Shown here: in pieces, positions 49,257 through 61,917 of the stretch | How positions within the stretch are numbered: the stretch's first letter is position 1 | Layout of the letters: each line of letters opens with the position of its first letter | Source of the DNA: Oligoflexia bacterium | Lineage (GTDB): Bacteria > Bdellovibrionota > UBA1018 > CAIPTA01 | Length of the DNA stretch: 64,000 nt | Assembly (NCBI GenBank): GCA_023954355.1 | Contig: JAMLID010000001.1 | Location: 68,361-132,360, forward strand | Direction of reading: 5' to 3' | Notes under the pieces: model-generated | The model's database searches: none | What the model saw: only the letters and a program-made list of their open reading frames with translations | Told to the model about the DNA's origin: nothing | Program-made: the position numbers and the translations under genes

Positions 49257-50655
<1,399 letters not shown>

Positions 50656-53637: not shown

Positions 53638-54497
53638 GGTGTGGGTGCTTGGTTTAGGGGGGCCGCAGTATCTACTTTAGGCGCTGTTTCGGGTAGTCCA
53701 GCGGTTGCTGGTGATGTGTCTATAGTTGTTTCACTAGCAGAAGATTTTTGTTCTGCTTGGCTTTTAATTTTCGTTTTAATGAGCTCAAGAACGCCAAATA
53801 CACGTTTTGCATTTATACCAAAGTCAGTTTTAATATTAACTCTGGAGCGTGAGCGAATATGCACAAACGATGTAGATTCTGGACCATCTCTTACTTGAAT
53901 GGCAAAGTCATCTGTTAGTGAGTACTGTTTTGTTTTAGCGACGAATTCAAACTTTCTTTCTTCAGCATTTTTGTACACTAAATGTAATTCTTCAAAAGAC
54001 GAGATAGCAGCGTCTAGCTCTTGATATACGAGTGCGGGCAATGCATTTATTTTAAAAGGCATTACATAGGGATACAAGGCTTTTTGTTGTTCTGCGTATT
54101 CTGGATGATATTGACGATCGATTAAGTAGCTATCATCAAGATAAGATTCGCTATTTGGTACAGAAATGCGAAATACGGGATAGGTAAATTCAATTGGTGC
54201 CGAAGGATCAGTTACAATATCACTCAAAGGATTGTTATATCCAATATAACCAAGCCAAGCGGCTCCAGCTATAACAGGCAAGGCAAAAAATAAGGGTAGT
54301 TTTGCAGTTTTTCCTTTTCTTTTTATTACAAGGCCTAGAAGAGCAAAAAGAAGAATTGCTATTGCAGAGCCTATGCTTAGATATAAGCCGAACGTTGAAG
54401 AAAAGATTTCTTCTGTGGCTCCATACCAACCAAGGATTCCTGTAGCGACTGCAATGAGAGATAAAAAGGAAAACATTAGCTTTTCCAACTTTGCCAA
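53634..54497 (-). CDS. Hypothetical membrane protein
   Basis: Two or three N-terminal transmembrane helices. Pro/Ala/Thr-rich C-terminus. Confidence 0.3.
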   Translation of the reverse strand: MAKLEKLMFSFLSLIAVATGILGWYGATEEIFSSTFGLYLSIGSAIAILLFALLGLVIKRKGKTAKLPLFFALPVIAGAAWLGYIGYNNPLSDIVTDPSAPIEFTYPVFRISVPNSESYLDDSYLIDRQYHPEYAEQQKALYPYVMPFKINALPALVYQELDAAISSFEELHLVYKNAEERKFEFVAKTKQYSLTDDFAIQVRDGPESTSFVHIRSRSRVNIKTDFGINAKRVFGVLELIKTKIKSQAEQKSSASETTIDTSPATAGLPETAPKVDTAAPLNQAPTP

Positions 54498-55579
54498 TAA
54501 TTTTGGACTTCAAGTGTATCCATAGAGGGATCTCTTTCAAGTGGATAGCGAGAGTCTATCATTACTGCGTATTCGTTTGTGAACTCCATGCCTTTGATCT
54601 TTTCAAACGCTTTAGGGTGTGGCCCATGAGGGAAGCCCGCAGGGTGAAAACTCATCATTCCAGAGTGAAGATTCGATCGCGAAAAGAAATCTCCATTGTG
54701 ATAAAAAAGAACTTCATCGTAATCTATATTTTGGTGATAAAAAGGAACCTTCAAAGCATCGTCATCAAACTCAATCGGTCGAGGAACAAAAGAGCAAACA
54801 ACAAAATTTGGAGCCACAAAAGTAGTATGTGCAGAAGGAGGTAGATGAGATCTGTGGCTCATAAGTGGCATGAGCTGATCCATGTTTAGTTTGAAGGGGA
54901 ATAAATCACCTTTCCAACCAAGAATATCAAAAATACATTCTTCATACTCAAAGCGAGTGATTTGGTCTGTGTGTTTTACGTCTACTTCTATGCAGCTTAA
55001 ATTATTTTTCTTAAGGTATGCATGCAATTCTTCTAGATTGGGAAGAACTAGTTGAGCCGTATCATAGACTGCGTTTTTGCCTACCATGCCTCGGTCTGGT
55101 TCGTTAAAAGAGCCTGTTTTACTTTCAATAAGTAAAAATTGTGAGTTCGCGTCAGGTAAGAAGATATGTCCAAAGCATTTAGGAATCACAATATAGTCAC
55201 CAGGTCGATAATCAAAGATTCCATATTCTGTTAAGAGCTTGCCTGTTCCTATATGAGCAAAATAAATACTATCACCATCGGCATTACGAAAAGCGGTTAG
55301 CTGTTTGGCCTCGTTTGGTTTTATCCATTGGTTGTATATAGAGATATCTTTATTAAAAAGTAAGCGCTGTCGTTTTCCACTTGCGTCGGCTTTTACAAGA
55401 TCGAACATCCTTGGTTTCAATGGACCATCAATTGTTTTCCAACGAGTAGATGCTTGTTTTCGAATGAGGTGAGATACGGGTCCAAAAAAACCTTTTCTTC
55501 CTTGTTCTTCTTCTACTCTACCTTCGGGTATTCCCTTATGAGCTTGTTTTGTATGTATGCCTTGTGCTGTAAAATACAT
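54476..55579 (-). CDS. hmgA: Homogentisate 1,2-dioxygenase-like cupin protein
   Basis: C-terminal ...FYHNGDFFSRSNLHSGMMSFHPAGFPHGPHPKAFEK... aligns with the HGD active-site region (YYHRN...TPHGPD..FEK). About 60-80 residues shorter than canonical HGD. Confidence 0.55.
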   Translation of the reverse strand: MYFTAQGIHTKQAHKGIPEGRVEEEQGRKGFFGPVSHLIRKQASTRWKTIDGPLKPRMFDLVKADASGKRQRLLFNKDISIYNQWIKPNEAKQLTAFRNADGDSIYFAHIGTGKLLTEYGIFDYRPGDYIVIPKCFGHIFLPDANSQFLLIESKTGSFNEPDRGMVGKNAVYDTAQLVLPNLEELHAYLKKNNLSCIEVDVKHTDQITRFEYEECIFDILGWKGDLFPFKLNMDQLMPLMSHRSHLPPSAHTTFVAPNFVVCSFVPRPIEFDDDALKVPFYHQNIDYDEVLFYHNGDFFSRSNLHSGMMSFHPAGFPHGPHPKAFEKIKGMEFTNEYAVMIDSRYPLERDPSMDTLEVQNYWQSWKS

Positions 55580-55661: not shown

Positions 55662-56750
55662 TTAAAGATAGTAGTGCATCAGTAAGGTGGCATAATCTTC
55701 AAATTCTCTACTCACTTGTAGATTTTTCTTTTGGTATAGAGAAAGAGAAAATTCAAAATGTGGTCTTGGGTACCAAGTGGCCCCTACTCCCGTGCTTAAT
55801 TGAAAGCTCGTATTTAGATCGTTATCTGCTTTCAAAAAATCGCTTAGAGCCAATAAATGAAATCCTTGAAAAAGCTCATAGCCAAGGTGAGAAAAAAAGG
55901 CCCAACTTTCTACTCTATCTACTTGTCCTATTTTATTTTTTTTAGACTGAAAATCTAACTCGGTCATTAAATATAACTTTTTAGTAAATCCTAAAATTCC
56001 GTGACCTGCTAGAATCCATCGATCAAATTTTTCGGTAGATCCGTTCCAAAGGCTTGCTCCAACTCGATGAGAGCTTAAGAAAAAACGTTCTACTTGTAAT
56101 GAGGCAGATCTTTCGTTATTTGCTAAGCGAGATTCGGTTCTTGCTTGAGATACTGAACCGGCTATATGCCACTCTTCCCCATTCCAATGAGTTTCTAAGG
56201 CATTTCTTTCACTCGTATGGCCAAAACCTAAAAAGCCTCTTGAGGGGAGTGTGTGGTTTGGGTGATTAATGCCAAAGACAGGGACAAAGCGGCCTAATCG
56301 AAACTGTACTTCGTCTCTGGCTTGATAGTTTATAGAAAATCGAGTGAATCCTCCTTTGATATGGTTTTCTTGATCGGGTTTTCCGTATGAGGCGACAATA
56401 GAGATGGCATCAAGAGAAACGGCGGCTTCTAAAGATGATTGCATTAAAATATATCGACCTTCTCTAATAGATTTATTTTCTCGATGAACTTGTAGGGCTC
56501 TTATGTCACCGCCAATATTAATGGCTTTTGGCATTTTTTCTGGCTTGATTGCACCATGCATGAATAAAGCTTCGTTTTCGTAGCTCCAGGTGCTGAGGGC
56601 TTCTGCAGAAATCATTCGTCCATATTCGTTAAGCAAGCCACCTCCATTAGAGCTTACATGGCAAGAGTTACAATTCATATACCCATGCCGTACCATTTCT
56701 GGAAAGGCATGGGCGGCATGAGAAAGTGCTACGAGAATTAAAAAAATCAT
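55662..56750 (-). CDS. Cyc2-like fused mono-heme cytochrome c / outer-membrane beta-barrel protein
   Basis: Signal peptide, then a single CxxCH (NCNSCH) within 15 residues of the mature N-terminus. About 330 aa follow with alternating amphipathic beta-strand character, ending in an aromatic-rich C-terminus (HYYL). Confidence 0.5.
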   Translation of the reverse strand: MIFLILVALSHAAHAFPEMVRHGYMNCNSCHVSSNGGGLLNEYGRMISAEALSTWSYENEALFMHGAIKPEKMPKAINIGGDIRALQVHRENKSIREGRYILMQSSLEAAVSLDAISIVASYGKPDQENHIKGGFTRFSINYQARDEVQFRLGRFVPVFGINHPNHTLPSRGFLGFGHTSERNALETHWNGEEWHIAGSVSQARTESRLANNERSASLQVERFFLSSHRVGASLWNGSTEKFDRWILAGHGILGFTKKLYLMTELDFQSKKNKIGQVDRVESWAFFSHLGYELFQGFHLLALSDFLKADNDLNTSFQLSTGVGATWYPRPHFEFSLSLYQKKNLQVSREFEDYATLLMHYYL

Positions 56751-57331
56751 AAAGCTTTCTTTTGAATAAGAGCTGTTGTTTGAACATCAACAATGTCTGC
56801 AACTGTGATTCCTAAATAAGAAGGTACAGGAATAGCAAAATCTTTTAATTGAATTTTAAAATTAGCGTTTAGTTTTCCCTTTTGAATTTGGAATGTTCCT
56901 TCAACGGCTTTTTTTACGCCATGAAATTCTAAAGTTCCTGTAAATGGAGCTTCTTTTGAATCGAGCTTATTTTCGAAATCATCGCTAACTGCCAAGTCTT
57001 GAATGCTTAGGGTTGCTTCAGGATATTTTTCTGTTTCTAAATATTTTTCTTTCATATGCTTATTTCGCAAATCTATTCCAGTGTCGAAGCTATCTATTTT
57101 AACAATAATTGTGCCAGATAGTTTTTTGTTTTTCACCTCAAGATTTCCATTGAGATCGTTAGATTTACCTTTGATTTTTAGCATTGAAGGTTTTCCTGTT
57201 GCTAAAAATTCGAGTTCTCCGGATGCGATATCTAGAGGGATATTGGCAAATGCAGATATTTGAAAAAATATCGATATTGTTGCTATTAGTATGATTTTCA
57301 TATTTTCTCCTTTGTTAATTATTGGGGGCAC
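56747..57331 (-). CDS. YceI-family periplasmic (polyisoprenoid-binding-like) protein
   Basis: Signal peptide. DSFDTGIDLRNKHMKEKYLETEKYPEATL matches the YceI signature. Overlaps the neighbours on both sides. Confidence 0.7.
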   Translation of the reverse strand: MPPIINKGENMKIILIATISIFFQISAFANIPLDIASGELEFLATGKPSMLKIKGKSNDLNGNLEVKNKKLSGTIIVKIDSFDTGIDLRNKHMKEKYLETEKYPEATLSIQDLAVSDDFENKLDSKEAPFTGTLEFHGVKKAVEGTFQIQKGKLNANFKIQLKDFAIPVPSYLGITVADIVDVQTTALIQKKAL

Positions 57332-57944
57332 CTAAAGCTATCCATCGAAGTAAGAGGTTTTTTTCTTCTTCTGTTAGTTGAGTCGCATCAAAGGGGGGCA
57401 TTGATCCTTGGCTGACTTCAAGGTTAATTGCATCTAAACTTGCTAATACGCTTTCGTAATCTTTCACAAGGCCTCTACCGTGACAGCGAGAGCATTTTAG
57501 TTGAAATACAAATTGATTTACTACTTGGTAAGTAGGATTTTCTAATTCTTCTGGTGATGGTCTAGTTCTAGGCGGTATAGGCTGTGGTTGAGGGGTAGTT
57601 TCCCCTGGTTTAAACTCTGGAGCGCCATCGGCCATCCAAGCCAATATGGCATTAATTTCTTCGTTTTTTAGTTTCCCTGAGGGAGGCATGGCTCCAGGGC
57701 TGCGTTCGGATCGTAAAATTCTATCTTTAATGAAGTCTAAGTTTTCAAGAACACTAGTGTAATTTGAAAAGATATCTCCTCCATGACAGCGAGCGCACTT
57801 TGGCTGAAAGACCATTTGATTAATTTCGGCAAACGAAATGTTTTTTAAGTTTGATGCAAGATCAACTTCTTGCTTGTCTACTCGGTAACTGCAAGATGAT
57901 GCTAAGAGGAGAAGAGTGTAAATGAGTAATTGTGCTTTTTTCAT
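57315..57944 (-). CDS. Diheme c-type cytochrome (two mono-heme repeats)
   Basis: Two repeats, each with CxxCH (CARCH, CSRCH) and a downstream MPP(S/F) candidate Met ligand. Lipoprotein-like signal LLLLASSC. Confidence 0.75.
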   Translation of the reverse strand: MKKAQLLIYTLLLLASSCSYRVDKQEVDLASNLKNISFAEINQMVFQPKCARCHGGDIFSNYTSVLENLDFIKDRILRSERSPGAMPPSGKLKNEEINAILAWMADGAPEFKPGETTPQPQPIPPRTRPSPEELENPTYQVVNQFVFQLKCSRCHGRGLVKDYESVLASLDAINLEVSQGSMPPFDATQLTEEEKNLLLRWIALGAPNN

Positions 57945-57969
57945 ATGAAAATCTTCTCCTCTTCTTTTT

Positions 57970-58350
57970 TTATTGAGTTACAACCTGAATGCTTCCGGCC
58001 ATTCCGTTGCCTTGGGTATCACCATGATTTGTACAAAAGTAAGAATACTCACCTACTCCAGGCATTCTTTGTGTGACGGCTACTTCAGCATCAGTATCCA
58101 TAACAAAGGGATTGTCGTTCGTAGGGTTTTGAATCCCTTGGAGTGGATGTCGCTTGCTGGCCTGTATGGTGATGACTGTTCCTGGCAGCACTCTTAGGCA
58201 TTTTGGGCTATAGCCCATGCCCTGAGTTTTGATTTCTACATTAGCCTCACTGGTGAATACATAGTCAGTTTCTGTACAACTTGTATTGGCCAAGGCTGAA
58301 CTAGCTGAAATTAAAGAAAAAATTGTAGTTAAAAGTAATTGTGATCTCAT
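57970..58350 (-). CDS. Cupredoxin-like (type-1 blue copper) protein
   Basis: Signal peptide from the internal Met (MRSQLLLTTIFSLISASSALA). C-terminal YFCTNHGDTQGNGM (Cys-x2-His...Met) and an upstream His. Small beta-sandwich size. ORF extends to 58458. Confidence 0.5.
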   Translation of the reverse strand: MRSQLLLTTIFSLISASSALANTSCTETDYVFTSEANVEIKTQGMGYSPKCLRVLPGTVITIQASKRHPLQGIQNPTNDNPFVMDTDAEVAVTQRMPGVGEYSYFCTNHGDTQGNGMAGSIQVVTQ

Positions 58351-58443
58351 TTTGTTTCTCCTTCTTGTAGAAAGAGTAAAGCAAAAAAACTTGCGTTGTA
58401 ACGAGGAGCGTCTTATAAAAATGATGAGATTTGAAGGGATTTT

Positions 58444-60249
58444 ATGGAGCTCACTCAATTACATTCCCTCTTTGAGAAAGGTAAGTTTCGGCAGCTTGTA
58501 GATGAGCTGTTTGATAGCCCGAAGAGAAAAAAGCTAAGCCAAGGTGATATTGTATCGCTAGTGGCAGCGCTTAGCTTTTTAGGTCGTATGGATGAAGCGA
58601 ACGCCCTTTTTCAATCGAGTAAAAAGACGGTTCAGCAAAAAAGTTTTTTGGTAGCTTGTCGATTTTTTTTAGGAATTTCTTACTATCGAATTGCACAAAT
58701 TGACAAAGCAAAAGAGTTTTTTTTATTAAATGAGCAGACTAATTCAGAAAATCCAATGGATAATTTTTTTATTCATCAAGGGCAAACTTTTCAATTTTAT
58801 TATTTAGGTCAGTATTCGTTGGCCGTAAGTACAGCTATGAAGGCTAGAGATTGTGCCATATATGCAGAAAGTATTTATGCAAGAGTATTGTCGACCGATG
58901 CGTTAGGCGTAATTAATGTCAATCTTGGAAACATCAATAAAGGCCTGATGCATTTAGAAGAAGCTAAGAATTTGTCCTTGAAATTAGGCAATATAAGCAC
59001 GGCATCTTCGATTGCTACAACTTCTATAATGGTAAAGTCAGAGGCTGGTAAGTTAGGTAAAAACAGCATTCAAGAGTTAGAAAATCATCTAAGTACGTTA
59101 GCGGCTGAGGACACGTTTGCCTATTCAAATTTGTGTATGGAAATTGCCCGACAAAGTACTTTGCGTGGCGATTATTTAAACGCAGACAGAGTTTTAAAAA
59201 ATGCATCAGATTATATCTACGCGCAAAATAATCGAAGGCATGAGATGCAATTAAACCTAAGGTGGGCAGAACTTTTTTATCAAAAGGGAGACACCTTTCA
59301 AGCAAAGCACTTTGTTCGTTCTGCAAAGCGGTTGGTAGATGAAAATTTAGATAAATCTTATCTCTTACGCATTTTGGCTTTTGAAATAAAACTAGCTGAT
59401 TCCTCTGATCAAAAATCTAAATTAACCAGAGAATGGATTGATTTTTATATTAAAATGAAAAATGAATCTTACGGTACGTTTCGAGATCAAAATTTTTACG
59501 CAACATTAAAATCGGATAGATCTTTTGAGTGTGTAGAAGATGAAGTCTATTTAGTGAGAAAAAAAGCCGCAGAACTTTTGGACAAGAGCGAAAAAATTGA
59601 ATTGTACCTAGATCATTTGTTTTTAACAGACATACGAGATGAACTAAATCTTTCTAAGGCAAGGCGGATTATTTGTGAAATCCCTAATGAAAAAGGACTT
59701 TTAATTTTAGATAAAGACGTAATCCGATACGGGAAAAAGCCACTAACGCCAACACAGAGAAAGATATTGGAATCTTTTTCTAAGGGGGTTCTTTCGAAGG
59801 AAGATTTAGTGAAGCGTGTTTGGGGGTATAAGTACAATTCATTAAGGCATGATCCTATGGTTTATTCTGCGATTAGTGGATTAAGAAAAGACTTGGGTGA
59901 GGCAAGCTCATGGGTGCAAATAGTAGAAGAAGGGTATTTTTTAGATGCCGAATTTAAGGCTAGTTCTGAAAAGGTAAGTGCTTTATTAAAAGAGAGTGTT
60001 GATGATAAAGCTTTAGAAGAAGCAGATGCCCTGCCCTTAAATCACCGGCAACTTCAGATTATTGATTGGATGAGGCGTGAACATTCGTTTTTATCAGTAA
60101 ACGACTGTAAAAAAAGATTTAAACGCTCAGAAATTACCTGCCTCAGAGACCTTGACGGATTGCGCAAGCTTGGGTTAGTGATGAGGGTAGGAAAAGCAAG
60201 GGCAACAAGGTATATGTTAAAAGAAAACTATGGAGGATCTTTAAAATGA
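58444..60249 (+). CDS. Large multi-domain transcriptional regulator: TPR-like N-terminal region + OmpR/PhoB-type winged helix + C-terminal DeoR-like HTH
   Basis: LTPTQRKILESF..LSKEDLVKRVWGYKYNSLRHDPMVYSAISGLRKDL matches the OmpR-C (trans_reg_C) signature. The C-terminal LNHRQLQIIDWMRREHSFLSVNDCKKRFKRSEITCLRDLDGLRKLGLV resembles a DeoR-type HTH. Confidence 0.55.
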   Translation: MELTQLHSLFEKGKFRQLVDELFDSPKRKKLSQGDIVSLVAALSFLGRMDEANALFQSSKKTVQQKSFLVACRFFLGISYYRIAQIDKAKEFFLLNEQTNSENPMDNFFIHQGQTFQFYYLGQYSLAVSTAMKARDCAIYAESIYARVLSTDALGVINVNLGNINKGLMHLEEAKNLSLKLGNISTASSIATTSIMVKSEAGKLGKNSIQELENHLSTLAAEDTFAYSNLCMEIARQSTLRGDYLNADRVLKNASDYIYAQNNRRHEMQLNLRWAELFYQKGDTFQAKHFVRSAKRLVDENLDKSYLLRILAFEIKLADSSDQKSKLTREWIDFYIKMKNESYGTFRDQNFYATLKSDRSFECVEDEVYLVRKKAAELLDKSEKIELYLDHLFLTDIRDELNLSKARRIICEIPNEKGLLILDKDVIRYGKKPLTPTQRKILESFSKGVLSKEDLVKRVWGYKYNSLRHDPMVYSAISGLRKDLGEASSWVQIVEEGYFLDAEFKASSEKVSALLKESVDDKALEEADALPLNHRQLQIIDWMRREHSFLSVNDCKKRFKRSEITCLRDLDGLRKLGLVMRVGKARATRYMLKENYGGSLK

Positions 60250-60713
60250 AGGTAATGGTTTTTTGGGGTTTAACTTTGTTGATCTCTACATCTTCTTACG
60301 CTGGATATAAAGCAAACTATCGAGTACCTGTTGAGCAAAATTTAGAAGCCTACTCTATGTATCCTATAGATCACTTTAAATTTTCTCAAAGAGGGCAAAA
60401 AGTAGTTATTGAATATGATTTACCAGAGACACTAGCAGGTGAAAAAAATCGAGCTAGAATTACTGGTGAAATCATCAACGGACAGATGATGGCATATACC
60501 CCCATGGGTGAGTTTCGCTGTTTCTTTCATGCGAATAATATAAACATGTGTAAAGTTCACTACAGCAATAGAATTAGAACAAGTATAGAGAAGGTAGAAG
60601 CGGCTTTAGTTGAAAGTGGAGTTTCTCAAGAAGAGATTCCTTTTCGTTTAGAGGTGGCAAGAACGTTTGGTGGCGACTTGCAGGGCGAACTGTTTTTTTA
60701 TCAAACTCGTTAG
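60246..60713 (+). CDS. Secreted hypothetical protein
   Basis: Signal peptide. Overlaps the regulator stop. Confidence 0.35.
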   Translation: MKVMVFWGLTLLISTSSYAGYKANYRVPVEQNLEAYSMYPIDHFKFSQRGQKVVIEYDLPETLAGEKNRARITGEIINGQMMAYTPMGEFRCFFHANNINMCKVHYSNRIRTSIEKVEAALVESGVSQEEIPFRLEVARTFGGDLQGELFFYQTR

Positions 60714-60721
60714 TTCTATCT

Positions 60722-60751
60722 GCGCCCTACTATTGGGCGCTTTTATCTTTT
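60722..60751. terminator. Rho-independent bidirectional terminator
   Basis: gcgccc-tactatt-gggcgc-ttttatctttt. Confidence 0.55.
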
Positions 60752-61790
60752 ACTTTAAATAGCCTCTTTTAACTTGGTCTCTTTCGATGGCATCGAAAAG
60801 GGCTTGGAAGTTTCCGTTGCCGAATCCGCCATGGTTTTCTCTTTGAATGACTTCATAAAAAATTGGTCCAACCATATTTTTAGTAAAAATTTGTAAAAGA
60901 TAGCCCGCTTCATCTCCATCAGCGAGAAGCGATAAGGACTGCAATTTTTTTGTTTCTTCCCACAGCAATGGCAATCTAGTTTTTAAAACTTCGTAATAGG
61001 TATCTGGAGGAGAATCTAAGAAGGAGATTTCTTTCTTATTCAATTCTTCTACTGTGTGAATGGCGTTGGTTACTAAAAAAGCCACATGCTGAATGCCTGG
61101 CCCATTATACTCTTCTAAATATTCTTGGATTTGAGATTTCCCATCAGAAGGTTCATTAATGGGAATGATCACTTTGTAACCCGGACTTACCATTACCTTA
61201 GATAATAAGCCGGTTTTAGAGCCCTTAATGTCAAAATATCGTACGTTTTGAAAATTAAAAGTTTTGGCATAAAAATCACACCATTTATCCATATCGCCTC
61301 TTGGCACATTATGAGTTAGGTGGTCTATTTTAAGTAAGCCCATTTGTGGATTTGCCGGCTCATGAGTGGGTGTGAATGAATTGCGAAATGAAAATTTGTT
61401 ATCTATGAAATAAATAAGAGAATCCCCTATTCCATAAATTGCCGGAAAGCTTACAGAGCCGTCTTTGCCTTCAAAAGGACGTGCGCCATTTTTAAGAGCG
61501 TGTTCAAATGCCTTTTTTGCGTTTTTAACTCTCCAGCCCATGGAACAAATGCTTGGTCCATGACCGTTGTGAAATTTTTCAGCGAACGAATTTTTTTCTG
61601 TATTGAGTAAAAATACACATTCATTTTGCTCATACATCTCTAGCGCTGTTGTCTTTGATTTTGCGGTACGAGAAAAGCCCAATCTTTGAAAAAGACTTCT
61701 TAGTTCGTCTGGCTTTGGACTCGAGTATTCAATAAACGCCATCCCTTCGATACCAGCTGGGTTATCTACATTCATTTCTGGAAAAGACAT
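60750..61790 (-). CDS. hppD: 4-hydroxyphenylpyruvate dioxygenase
   Basis: Two vicinal oxygen chelate modules. C-terminal ...FYEVIQRENHGGFGNGNFQALFDAIERDQ..., typical HPPD. Start set at the Met with AAGGAG 5 nt upstream; the ORF extends to 61835. Confidence 0.85.
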   Translation of the reverse strand: MSFPEMNVDNPAGIEGMAFIEYSSPKPDELRSLFQRLGFSRTAKSKTTALEMYEQNECVFLLNTEKNSFAEKFHNGHGPSICSMGWRVKNAKKAFEHALKNGARPFEGKDGSVSFPAIYGIGDSLIYFIDNKFSFRNSFTPTHEPANPQMGLLKIDHLTHNVPRGDMDKWCDFYAKTFNFQNVRYFDIKGSKTGLLSKVMVSPGYKVIIPINEPSDGKSQIQEYLEEYNGPGIQHVAFLVTNAIHTVEELNKKEISFLDSPPDTYYEVLKTRLPLLWEETKKLQSLSLLADGDEAGYLLQIFTKNMVGPIFYEVIQRENHGGFGNGNFQALFDAIERDQVKRGYLK

Positions 61791-61917
61791 ATAGGCTCCT
61801 TTATTAAGATGCAAAATATTGGCTGAGCCTAACAAAAGAACTAGAGCCTGTCCTCAAATTTATTAGAGATTTGAGAAAGTCTAGGATTTGTCTTAGATTT
61901 AAACACGGAGTGTTCTA

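Follow-up and report, generated by a model that had tools for sequence, protein, structure and literature searches.

The window analysed here, a 64,000-nucleotide stretch of contig JAMLID010000001.1 from an Oligoflexia bacterium (assembly GCA_023954355.1, positions 68,361 to 132,360), carries on its minus strand a four-gene cluster whose last gene (55662..56750) encodes a fused monohaem cytochrome-porin of 362 amino acids (aa), hereafter the haem-porin. By sequence comparison, this protein belongs to a family that is homologous to Cyc2 yet distinct from it, i.e., a sister family that falls outside the published definition of Cyc2. What is new is a large sister family of Cyc2, so far from Bdellovibrionota, with conserved barrel residues of its own and a YceI-family protein as its partner. 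The association of haem-porin, YceI, and cytochrome c suggests an undescribed electron route across the outer membrane, and we consider it probable that the module operates as an outer-membrane single-electron conduit of the Cyc2 design.

The original prediction had ascribed to the 362-aa protein the architecture of Cyc2, and this was borne out: the protein combines a signal peptide, a single N-terminal CxxCH, a 16-strand barrel, and a plug formed by the haem segment. By inspection, it opens with the hydrophobic leader MIFLILVALSHAAHA, which ends AHA|FP, and the A-x-A|[FY]-P cleavage context is kept across the haem-porin family. The mature N-terminus holds the haem segment AFPEMVRHGYMNCNSCHVSSNGGGLLNEYGR (residues 15 to 45; 56616..56708, minus strand), delimited from the translation and from conservation, in which the only CxxCH of the protein, CNSCH, occupies residues 27 to 31 (56658-56672). 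This segment is the most conserved part of the haem-porin; in 542 of 545 family sequences, the Cys-Cys-His triad falls in the same alignment columns, and C27, C30, and H31 are invariant in the 509 family sequences that remain non-redundant at ≤90% identity. Residues 77 to 361 (55668..56522, minus strand) were modelled by AlphaFold2 as a 16-strand beta-barrel with high confidence (predicted local distance difference test score 88.9, predicted template modelling score 0.84), so that the absence of a transmembrane barrel, which would have spoken against a Cyc2-like protein, does not apply. The C-terminus bears the beta-signal HYYL. The best structural match is the phosphate porin OprP; OprP and OprO (PDB 2O4V, 4RJW) differ from the haem-porin in sequence (≤15% identity) and in having no haem segment, and the window cluster has no phosphate-transport context. 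No PDB entry matched the haem-porin by sequence and no Pfam or NCBIfam model reached its threshold, the sole Pfam match being Porin_O_P (16.3 bits, E 0.006, below cut-off); five of the homologues listed carry a precomputed PF07396 label. The protein would reside in the outer membrane with its haem covalently attached.

The position of the haem segment relative to the barrel was derived by mean-field direct coupling analysis (DCA) of the 509 aligned non-redundant family sequences (Meff 472). The strongest couplings recovered the hairpins and the closure of strand 1 against strand 16 (residues 80 to 82 with 359), and loop L3 (residues 156 to 181) coupled across the barrel with residues 201, 233, 246, and 304, as expected of a constriction loop folded into the lumen. 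Sixty-six of the 300 top couplings joined residues 17 to 72 to the strands, all 16 of which were involved. These contacts had a mean relative height of 0.25, with 77% in the periplasmic half, and their clustering at the periplasmic strand ends indicates that the haem segment is a plug in the periplasmic mouth of the barrel. The fold of the haem-porin and the position of its plug are established by these analyses. Within the barrel, Met103 (strand 2; 56442-56444) and His166 (loop L3; 56253-56255) are invariant across the family alignment and His331 (periplasmic turn 7; 55758-55760) is 98% conserved. Because invariant residues give no DCA signal, their assignment follows from neighbouring residues: positions 101, 107, and 108, next to Met103, couple with haem-segment residues 18, 28, and 26, and residues 326 to 330 couple with 19 to 23 and 52 to 65. 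Met103 presents itself as the likeliest distal haem ligand, His331 probably packs against the plug, and the three residues together may provide the distal ligand and a metal or substrate site at the constriction.

As defined by Keffer et al. (2021; PMC8406198), Cyc2 has a signal peptide, one CxxCH with AxPxFAR[Q/K][T/Y] upstream and PxL downstream, a 16-strand porin, and a length of at least 365 aa. The upstream motif is held to be unique to Cyc2 and serves as inclusion filter, and the same work provides a plug model and a demonstrated Fe2+ oxidase activity (PMC8406198). The window protein has the signal peptide (judged by inspection only), the single CxxCH near the mature N-terminus, and a 16-strand porin like OprO/OprP. 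It departs from Cyc2 in three respects: it reads A-F-P-E-M-V-R-H-G (PEMVRHG) in place of PxFAR[QK][TY]; the PxL expected 4 residues after CxxCH is displaced by a GGG insertion; and its 362 aa fall short of the 365-aa minimum (the FeGenie filter; most Cyc2 are ≥400 aa). The proposal that the protein bears the hallmark of Cyc2 thus stands for its architecture and remote homology and fails for motif, PxL, and length.

For comparison, 185,579 species genomes were scanned with a degenerate DNA pattern for the Cyc2 motif in which Arg was fixed as CGN, which yielded 102 motif-bearing Cyc2 proteins, including those of Acidithiobacillus, Sideroxydans, and Gallionella, a sample in which genomes using TTC and CGN codons (higher G+C) are over-represented. 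The consensus of these proteins, A-[ILV]-P-x-F-A-R-[QK]-[TY]-x3-CxxCH-x3-P-x-L-[TN]-x-[FY]-G-R, and that of the haem-porin family, A-[FY]-P-E-[MNL]-[VI]-R-H-G-Y-x-N-CxxCH-V-S-P-x-GGG-[LVI]-L-[TN]-x-Y-G-R, agree at the motif in no more than A, P, and R and the distance of 3 residues to the first Cys. In both families, the mature N-terminus begins at the motif, which ends 3 residues before the first Cys. Further downstream, the haem-porin family has CH-V-S-P-x-G-G-G-[LVI]-L, with Pro at +3 (Ser in the window protein) and Leu at +8/+9, and the L-[TN]-x-[FY]-G-R common to both families is shifted by 3 residues in the haem-porins; some canonical Cyc2 carry a 2-residue GG insertion where the haem-porin family has GGG. 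Family members are mostly 357 to 395 aa long.

Profile-profile alignment (hhalign) of the haem-porin family with Cyc2 gave a probability of 96.7% and E 3.5e-10 over 316 columns, so the objection that homology to Cyc2 might not be detectable at all also falls away. The N-terminal segments alone gave E 6.6e-10 and the barrels alone E 6.6e-4 over 231 colinear columns; reversed controls gave E 0.026 and 0.18. The family hidden Markov model (HMM), in contrast, scored ≤24 bits against 74 full-length Cyc2 (E 1.6 at 1.8e9 sequences), which is not significant. It follows that the 2,511 family matches described below are not canonical Cyc2 and that the homology is carried by profile-profile comparison, by the split and reversed controls, and by rank tests. 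In the latter, a substitute Cyc2 HMM built from 74 motif-bearing Cyc2 sequences scored the window haem-porin at 15.8 bits, its sole match among 138 open reading frames (ORFs) of the window, and members of the haem-porin family at ≤22.8 bits; among 3,068 ORFs of the family loci, it placed family porins at ranks 1 to 56 without interruption and recovered all 88 of them. The family HMM, run over 5,837 ORFs of Cyc2 loci, had Cyc2 proteins as 13 of its top 15. Together with the profile-profile result, the HMM scores mark the haem-porins as remote homologues that lie beyond the core of Cyc2.

In summary form, A. ferrooxidans Cyc2, M. ferrooxydans Cyc2PV-1, and Leptospirillum Cyt572 resemble the haem-porins in having an OprP/OprO-type 16-strand barrel plugged at its periplasmic mouth and a mature protein that starts at A-x-P-x-[hydrophobic]2-R, 3 residues ahead of the sole CxxCH; a cytochrome c gene is also a frequent neighbour in both. 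Haem-porins differ in being shorter (about 360 to 390 aa, against mostly ≥400 aa in Cyc2) and in Met103, His166, and His331, a feature of their family to which no residue corresponded in 74 canonical Cyc2; no conserved His or Met was found outside the N-terminal segment in the alignment of these 74 proteins, in which the divergence of the barrels may blur such positions. MtrAB, MtoAB, and PioAB likewise have a haem protein inserted in an outer-membrane barrel as an electron path across the membrane. The strict motif P-x-F-A-R-[QK]-[TY]-x3-CxxCH, for its part, reaches genomes far beyond the known iron oxidisers (loci L007 to L126), including Acidobacteriota, Gemmatimonadota, Myxococcota, Bacteroidota, Nitrospira, Massilia, Ralstonia, and Sulfurospirillum; several of these ORFs are short (93 to 300 aa) and may be missing the full barrel.

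A profile search placed 2,511 clusters (50% identity) in the haem-porin family at E ≤1e-3 and 778 at E ≤1e-30. Every source name among the matches listed is annotated as "hypothetical protein", and M9962_00635 of an Oligoflexia metagenome-assembled genome (MAG) has the same sequence as the window protein. Named hosts among these matches are Oligoflexia, Oligoflexus, Bdellovibrionales, Bdellovibrionaceae, Pseudobdellovibrionaceae, Halobacteriovorax, and Bacteriovoracaceae, and include the cultured isolates Bdellovibrio sp. HCB337 and HCB-162. One match has conflicting host labels (Methylotenera in NCBI, Oligoflexia in nr); for a few MAGs, the label goes no further than "Proteobacteria bacterium", and all other named sources among the matches listed are Bdellovibrionota. 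The hosts come from many habitats and not from iron mats. B. bacteriovorus is not among the matches listed, which does not in itself prove its absence from the family. A tblastn search of PLSDB plasmids with the haem-porin returned only a chance match, in Deinococcus (E 4). Literature searches, which were not exhaustive, found no description of the family and no paper that mentions Bdellovibrio together with YceI; one paper that names both Cyc2 and Bdellovibrionota employs Cyc2 as a survey marker only.

Gene neighbourhoods were compared in 86 related loci (80 metagenomic and 6 genomic), 69 of which hold enough DNA upstream of the haem-porin gene. In 49 of these 69, a YceI gene lies directly upstream, usually with the same 4-bp overlap as in the window, and in the remainder a cytochrome c gene mostly takes its place. 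Unbiased clustering of the neighbouring ORFs over the 86 loci retrieved the porin in 86, YceI in 64, and class-I cytochromes c with one to three haems in 52 plus 4, and no further recurrent gene. Less frequent neighbours were a regulator (9 loci), cytochrome b562 (6), and a cupredoxin (3). The core module consists of lipoprotein cytochrome c, YceI, and haem-porin, since only these recur; the cupredoxin is an addition in this lineage. YceI, which had been regarded as a mere extra to an iron-oxidation triad, is the most constant partner of all, and the cupredoxin counted in that triad is rare. Canonical Cyc2 loci present another picture, with a neighbouring cytochrome c in 41 of 102 and YceI in a single one, where it is not co-oriented. 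Most partner cytochromes are lipoproteins, as a regular expression showed for 46 of 65 and visual inspection for most of the others, and they share a conserved start, C-[SN]-Y-x-x-[EK]-K, in which the residue after Cys is not Asp. By the Lol rule of E. coli, lipoproteins with a residue other than Asp after the Cys go to the outer membrane, and the partner cytochromes would by analogy be sent there.

Some members of the family show variations on this arrangement. A cytochrome b562 gene (PF07361) lies just upstream of YceI in loci L001, L003, and L004 and in three further loci, with or without a c-type cytochrome nearby, so that the soluble redox partner is interchangeable. Locus L006 (Oligoflexia MAG JARLHE010000024.1, 1-13176) has tandem paralogous haem-porins (381 and 391 aa) behind one YceI, a monohaem cytochrome c between the two, and in its flanks a multicopper oxidase, a LysR regulator, an Fe-S flavoprotein, and the System II biogenesis genes ResB and CcsA. 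L167 likewise holds two haem-porin copies.

The window cluster itself comprises four consecutive minus-strand ORFs between 55662 and 58458, all present in the ORF listing, and the four products foreseen from the sequence (cupredoxin, dihaem cytochrome c, YceI protein, and haem protein) were each confirmed by ORFs, domains, and alignment of the copper ligands. The cupredoxin gene (57970..58350; 126 aa) probably starts at the ATG at 58350, which has an AAGGAG ribosome-binding site 8 nt upstream and from which the product opens with a signal peptide (ALA|NT). Two other starts were discarded: the boundary at 58443 given previously falls on a Lys codon and offers no start codon, and the mechanically assigned TTG at 58458 would create an overlap with the divergent regulator gene. 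YceI (56747..57301; 184 aa) likewise probably starts at an ATG, at 57301, with AAGGAG upstream, its start having been read from the sequence. With these starts, gaps of 25 bp separate the cupredoxin and cytochrome genes and 13 bp the cytochrome and YceI genes, and the sole overlap is the 4-bp ATGA shared by the YceI stop and the porin start; the genes are therefore tightly packed, as had been claimed, and do not all overlap. A consensus scan of the minus strand found no terminator-like site inside the four-gene cluster, nor any in the 82 bp that separate the porin from the gene after it, and a repeat search no terminator hairpin downstream of the porin, so that read-through into the HgmA-like gene (54476-55579) is possible. 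CxxCH occurs in only 2 of the 138 ORFs (≥60 aa) of the window and both lie in the cluster, a grouping that exceeds chance. An imperfect 20-nt palindrome (70% complementary) at 58433-58466 covers the codon at which the regulator gene starts, immediately upstream of the short promoter region of the cluster, and was the sole inverted repeat that the repeat search found there.

On alignment, the first gene product is a periplasmic type-1 (blue) copper protein of the pseudoazurin/plastocyanin-like kind. Its Pfam Copper-bind match is weak (18.1 bits, E 0.0037, below cut-off); H68, C106, H109, and M117, in the spacing C-x2-H-x7-M, align with all four type-1 Cu ligands of pseudoazurin 1BQK, and pseudoazurins head its PDB sequence matches (E 0.012 and weaker), among which rusticyanin is absent. 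The second gene (57315..57944; 209 aa) encodes a dihaem class-I cytochrome c lipoprotein (Pfam Cytochrome_CBB3, E 4.9e-13) with the lipobox LLASS-C18 and the haem motifs CARCH (57783-57797) and CSRCH (57480-57494), each followed by the Met of an ...MPP sequence, in two class-I domains joined by a Pro-rich linker. Its PDB matches are single domains of cytochromes c-553 and c6 (E 4.7e-4 to 0.2), the best being a c-553 (E 4.7e-4), and neither cytochrome c4 (Cyc1) nor A. ferrooxidans Cyc41 is among them. The third product is a periplasmic lipocalin of the YceI family (PF04264, 72.2 bits against a gathering cut-off of 23.7, E 7.7e-20) with a signal peptide.

These assignments bear on the parallel that had been drawn with the rus operon of A. 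ferrooxidans, which has the order cyc2-cyc1-orf1-coxBACD-rus. Both are co-directional and contain genes for a monohaem cytochrome-porin, a dihaem cytochrome c, and a cupredoxin, but in the window the order is reversed, with the porin last, and there are no cox genes. Cyc1 is a soluble dihaem c4, whereas its window counterpart, with c553/c6-like domains, is a lipoprotein; the cupredoxin resembles pseudoazurin, with no rusticyanin among its matches; and the linked aa3-type oxidase of the rus operon has no equivalent in ORFs ≥110 aa at 41.8 to 62.6 kb of the window. With neither c4 nor rusticyanin among the PDB matches, the "same triad" is a matter of analogy, not orthology, and the original prediction went too far in equating the cluster with the rus operon and with iron oxidation.

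In a conduit of the Cyc2 design, which is how we would probably explain the module, the mature N-terminus of about 60 residues, with its one covalent haem c, would plug the periplasmic mouth of the 16-strand barrel. The narrow porin would admit only small solutes to the haem from outside. A small redox-active solute would reach the pore from outside or be delivered to it and swap single electrons with the haem, held by His31 as proximal ligand and, most likely, by Met103 of strand 2 as distal ligand. The haem would in turn exchange electrons with the lipid-anchored cytochrome c of the cluster, from which, in this lineage, they would go on to the soluble blue copper protein, able to reach the respiratory chain. 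The translationally coupled YceI would act as a stoichiometric partner, most likely with an isoprenoid quinone or lipid bound where the porin faces the periplasm; its constancy as a partner implies that it must be part of the mechanism. The haem ligands and the direction of electron flow are given here as we infer them, and the substrate candidates would be Fe2+, Cu+, or a quinone borne by YceI. Fe2+ is the default candidate because Cyc2 proteins oxidise dissolved Fe2+; it is possible by analogy, yet doubtful on three counts: the signature residues are not those of Cyc2, genes for respiration or autotrophy are not linked to the module, and iron oxidisers are not among the hosts.

Several observations weigh against a conduit of this kind. 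Besides the departure from the Cyc2 signature and the non-significant scores of the family HMM against Cyc2, the family is known solely from sequence and predicted structure, and the plug is positioned by mean-field DCA and not by model coordinates. No oxidase or other respiratory domain was found in ORFs ≥110 aa at 41.8 to 62.6 kb, and no oxidase gene recurs in the 86 related loci. The named hosts are, to our knowledge, aerobic heterotrophs or predators with no known need of Fe(II) as an electron donor. Finally, the coupling with YceI has no counterpart in Cyc2 loci (1 of 102), so that the actual chemistry may differ.

It is on this last point that the best-surviving alternative builds. YceI lipocalin structures hold ubiquinone-8 or other polyisoprenoids, and YceI proteins are genetically tied or fused to cytochromes (PMC9113575, PMC8981238). 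The coupling of YceI with an envelope haem protein seen in the window is also found in BcnA-LcoA of Burkholderia and yceI-yceJ of E. coli (PMC9113575) and in Cbp2D/E of Cellvibrio (PMC8981238). The module could accordingly be a redox system of the envelope that works on quinones or as an antioxidant, akin to BcnA-LcoA but at the outer membrane, and no metal would be oxidised in the pore: YceI would ferry ubiquinol or an isoprenoid to the outer membrane, and haem-porin and lipoprotein cytochrome c would re-reduce or re-oxidise the carrier, with the outcome that lipid peroxyl radicals are quenched or electrons are passed outward to extracellular oxidants. The quinone and polyisoprenoid binding of YceI and its cytochrome ties elsewhere, including the published links of YceI, ubiquinone-8, and cytochromes with their gene fusions (PMC9113575, PMC8981238), lend support to such a system, as do its rank as most constant partner, translationally coupled and upstream in 49 of 69 loci, the virtual absence of YceI from canonical Cyc2 loci (1 of 102), and the cytochrome b562 that stands in for cytochrome c in some loci. 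The partner in the window, however, is a c-type haem inside an outer-membrane barrel, as opposed to the inner-membrane four-helix cytochrome b561 of BcnA-LcoA or the secreted multidomain protein of Cbp2D/E, and is joined by an additional lipoprotein cytochrome c; no cytochrome b561 is present in the window cluster or among the recurrent neighbour clusters. About 20 of the 69 loci have no adjacent YceI and yet have a cytochrome c, and no aldehyde reductase or other detoxification gene recurs nearby in the 86 loci. Moreover, His/Met c-type haems and cupredoxins normally lie above the ubiquinone/ubiquinol (UQ/UQH2) couple in potential, and reduction of a quinone by them would be uphill. We regard a quinone system of this sort as unlikely.

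A true Cyc2-type respiratory Fe(II) oxidase, which would make dissolved Fe2+ an energy source as it is in Acidithiobacillus, Zetaproteobacteria, and Gallionellaceae, fares worse and appears distinctly improbable. The architecture and plug match those of Cyc2, with remote homology, Cyc2 is itself a demonstrated Fe2+ oxidase (PMC8406198), and the cluster provides cytochrome c and cupredoxin carriers. Yet the signature motif is not that of Cyc2, the carriers match neither Cyc1 nor rusticyanin, no oxidase or carbon-fixation genes are linked, and the named hosts are Bdellovibrionota (with one conflicting label) that come from a wide range of habitats, not from iron mats; moreover, the authors of the Cyc2 definition are themselves unsure what divergent homologues of Cyc2 do (PMC8406198). 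An ordinary anion- or phosphate-type porin, with a structural or vestigial haem and coincidental redox neighbours, might be read from the weak Porin_O_P match (E 0.006, below cut-off), the PF07396 labels on five listed homologues, and OprP as best structural match, but is very unlikely in view of the plug and of the haem triad C27, C30, and H31, invariant in 509 sequences: conservation peaks in the haem segment, which coevolves with the barrel, a cytochrome c is adjacent in most loci in very different genomic contexts, and a plug in the periplasmic mouth would obstruct ordinary diffusion.

The cluster lies in a region of even composition (G+C content 0.33 to 0.43), and no Rfam RNA family was found at 53 to 62 kb of the window. 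Housekeeping genes lie on both sides: one flank contains sucA-sucB-lpd and genes for DUF4442, DUF1275, a 4HBT thioesterase, DUF1499, and an HgmA-like cupin; in the other, a divergent regulator and a 155-aa secreted protein are followed by HPPD and RNase H. The candidate regulator (58444..60249, plus strand; 601 aa) combines TPR, an OmpR-type winged helix, and a DeoR-type helix-turn-helix (HTH) according to Pfam (Trans_reg_C, 5e-6; TPR_MalT, 1.9e-4, below cut-off; HTH_DeoR, 5.8e-4). The ORF for the secreted protein (60246..60713, plus strand), translationally coupled to the regulator gene, had no Pfam or NCBIfam match and is family-less. Homologues of the regulator stand beside the module in 9 of the 86 loci, all of them close relatives, and those of the 155-aa protein in 7; it is possible that the regulator belongs to the module.

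The HgmA-like cupin (54476-55579, minus strand; HgmA_N, E 1.7e-12), a divergent homogentisate-dioxygenase-like protein whose gene starts 82 bp after the porin, and HPPD (60750-61835, minus strand; Glyoxalase_5, E 2.4e-39) are tyrosine-catabolism genes that bracket the module in the window. In close relatives, the trio of HgmA-like, DUF1499, and 4HBT genes lies a few kb from the module with unrelated genes between. We discarded these tyrosine-catabolism genes as part of the module, as they recur only in the closest relatives and with unrelated genes in between. Elsewhere in the window, lpd is split over two frames (49257-50655, plus strand), with Pyr_redox_2 in the ORF at 49257-50378 and the dimerisation domain Pyr_redox_dim (E 9.7e-44) in the overlapping ORF at 50191-50655, i.e., a frameshift, due to either a MAG assembly error or a pseudogene.

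A more specific reading, tentative and rather unlikely, is that haem-porin, a YceI that carries a quinone or lipid, and anchored cytochrome c form a conserved outer-membrane redox device proper to Bdellovibrionota that does not serve lithotrophic Fe(II) oxidation. Electron traffic would then link the periplasm with the cell surface or with outer-membrane lipids and could serve, for instance, to keep the outer membrane of the predator reduced or to oxidise Cu+ or Fe2+ on contact with prey. If true, this would add a new functional class to the cytochrome-porin superfamily and give a YceI protein an outer-membrane partner for the first time.

Cyc2 is a widely used marker gene for microbial iron oxidation, and the limits of its family are set by one motif and by HMM cut-offs. 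The haem-porins have the Cyc2 architecture and yet lie outside these limits, in a sister family that numbers 2,511 clusters or more (50% identity), is without a qualifying Pfam or NCBIfam match, and sits in a largely predatory phylum without described extracellular electron transfer; its fixed partner, YceI, is no partner of Cyc2. Metagenome surveys should hence be cautious in that a "Cyc2-like" architecture does not equal iron oxidation. If the module is indeed an electron conduit, the fused cytochrome-porin design would reach beyond the iron oxidisers, YceI lipocalins would gain a defined redox partner in the outer membrane, and Bdellovibrio-like organisms would gain a surface redox function that is testable, as cultured carriers and Cyc2-style heterologous expression exist.

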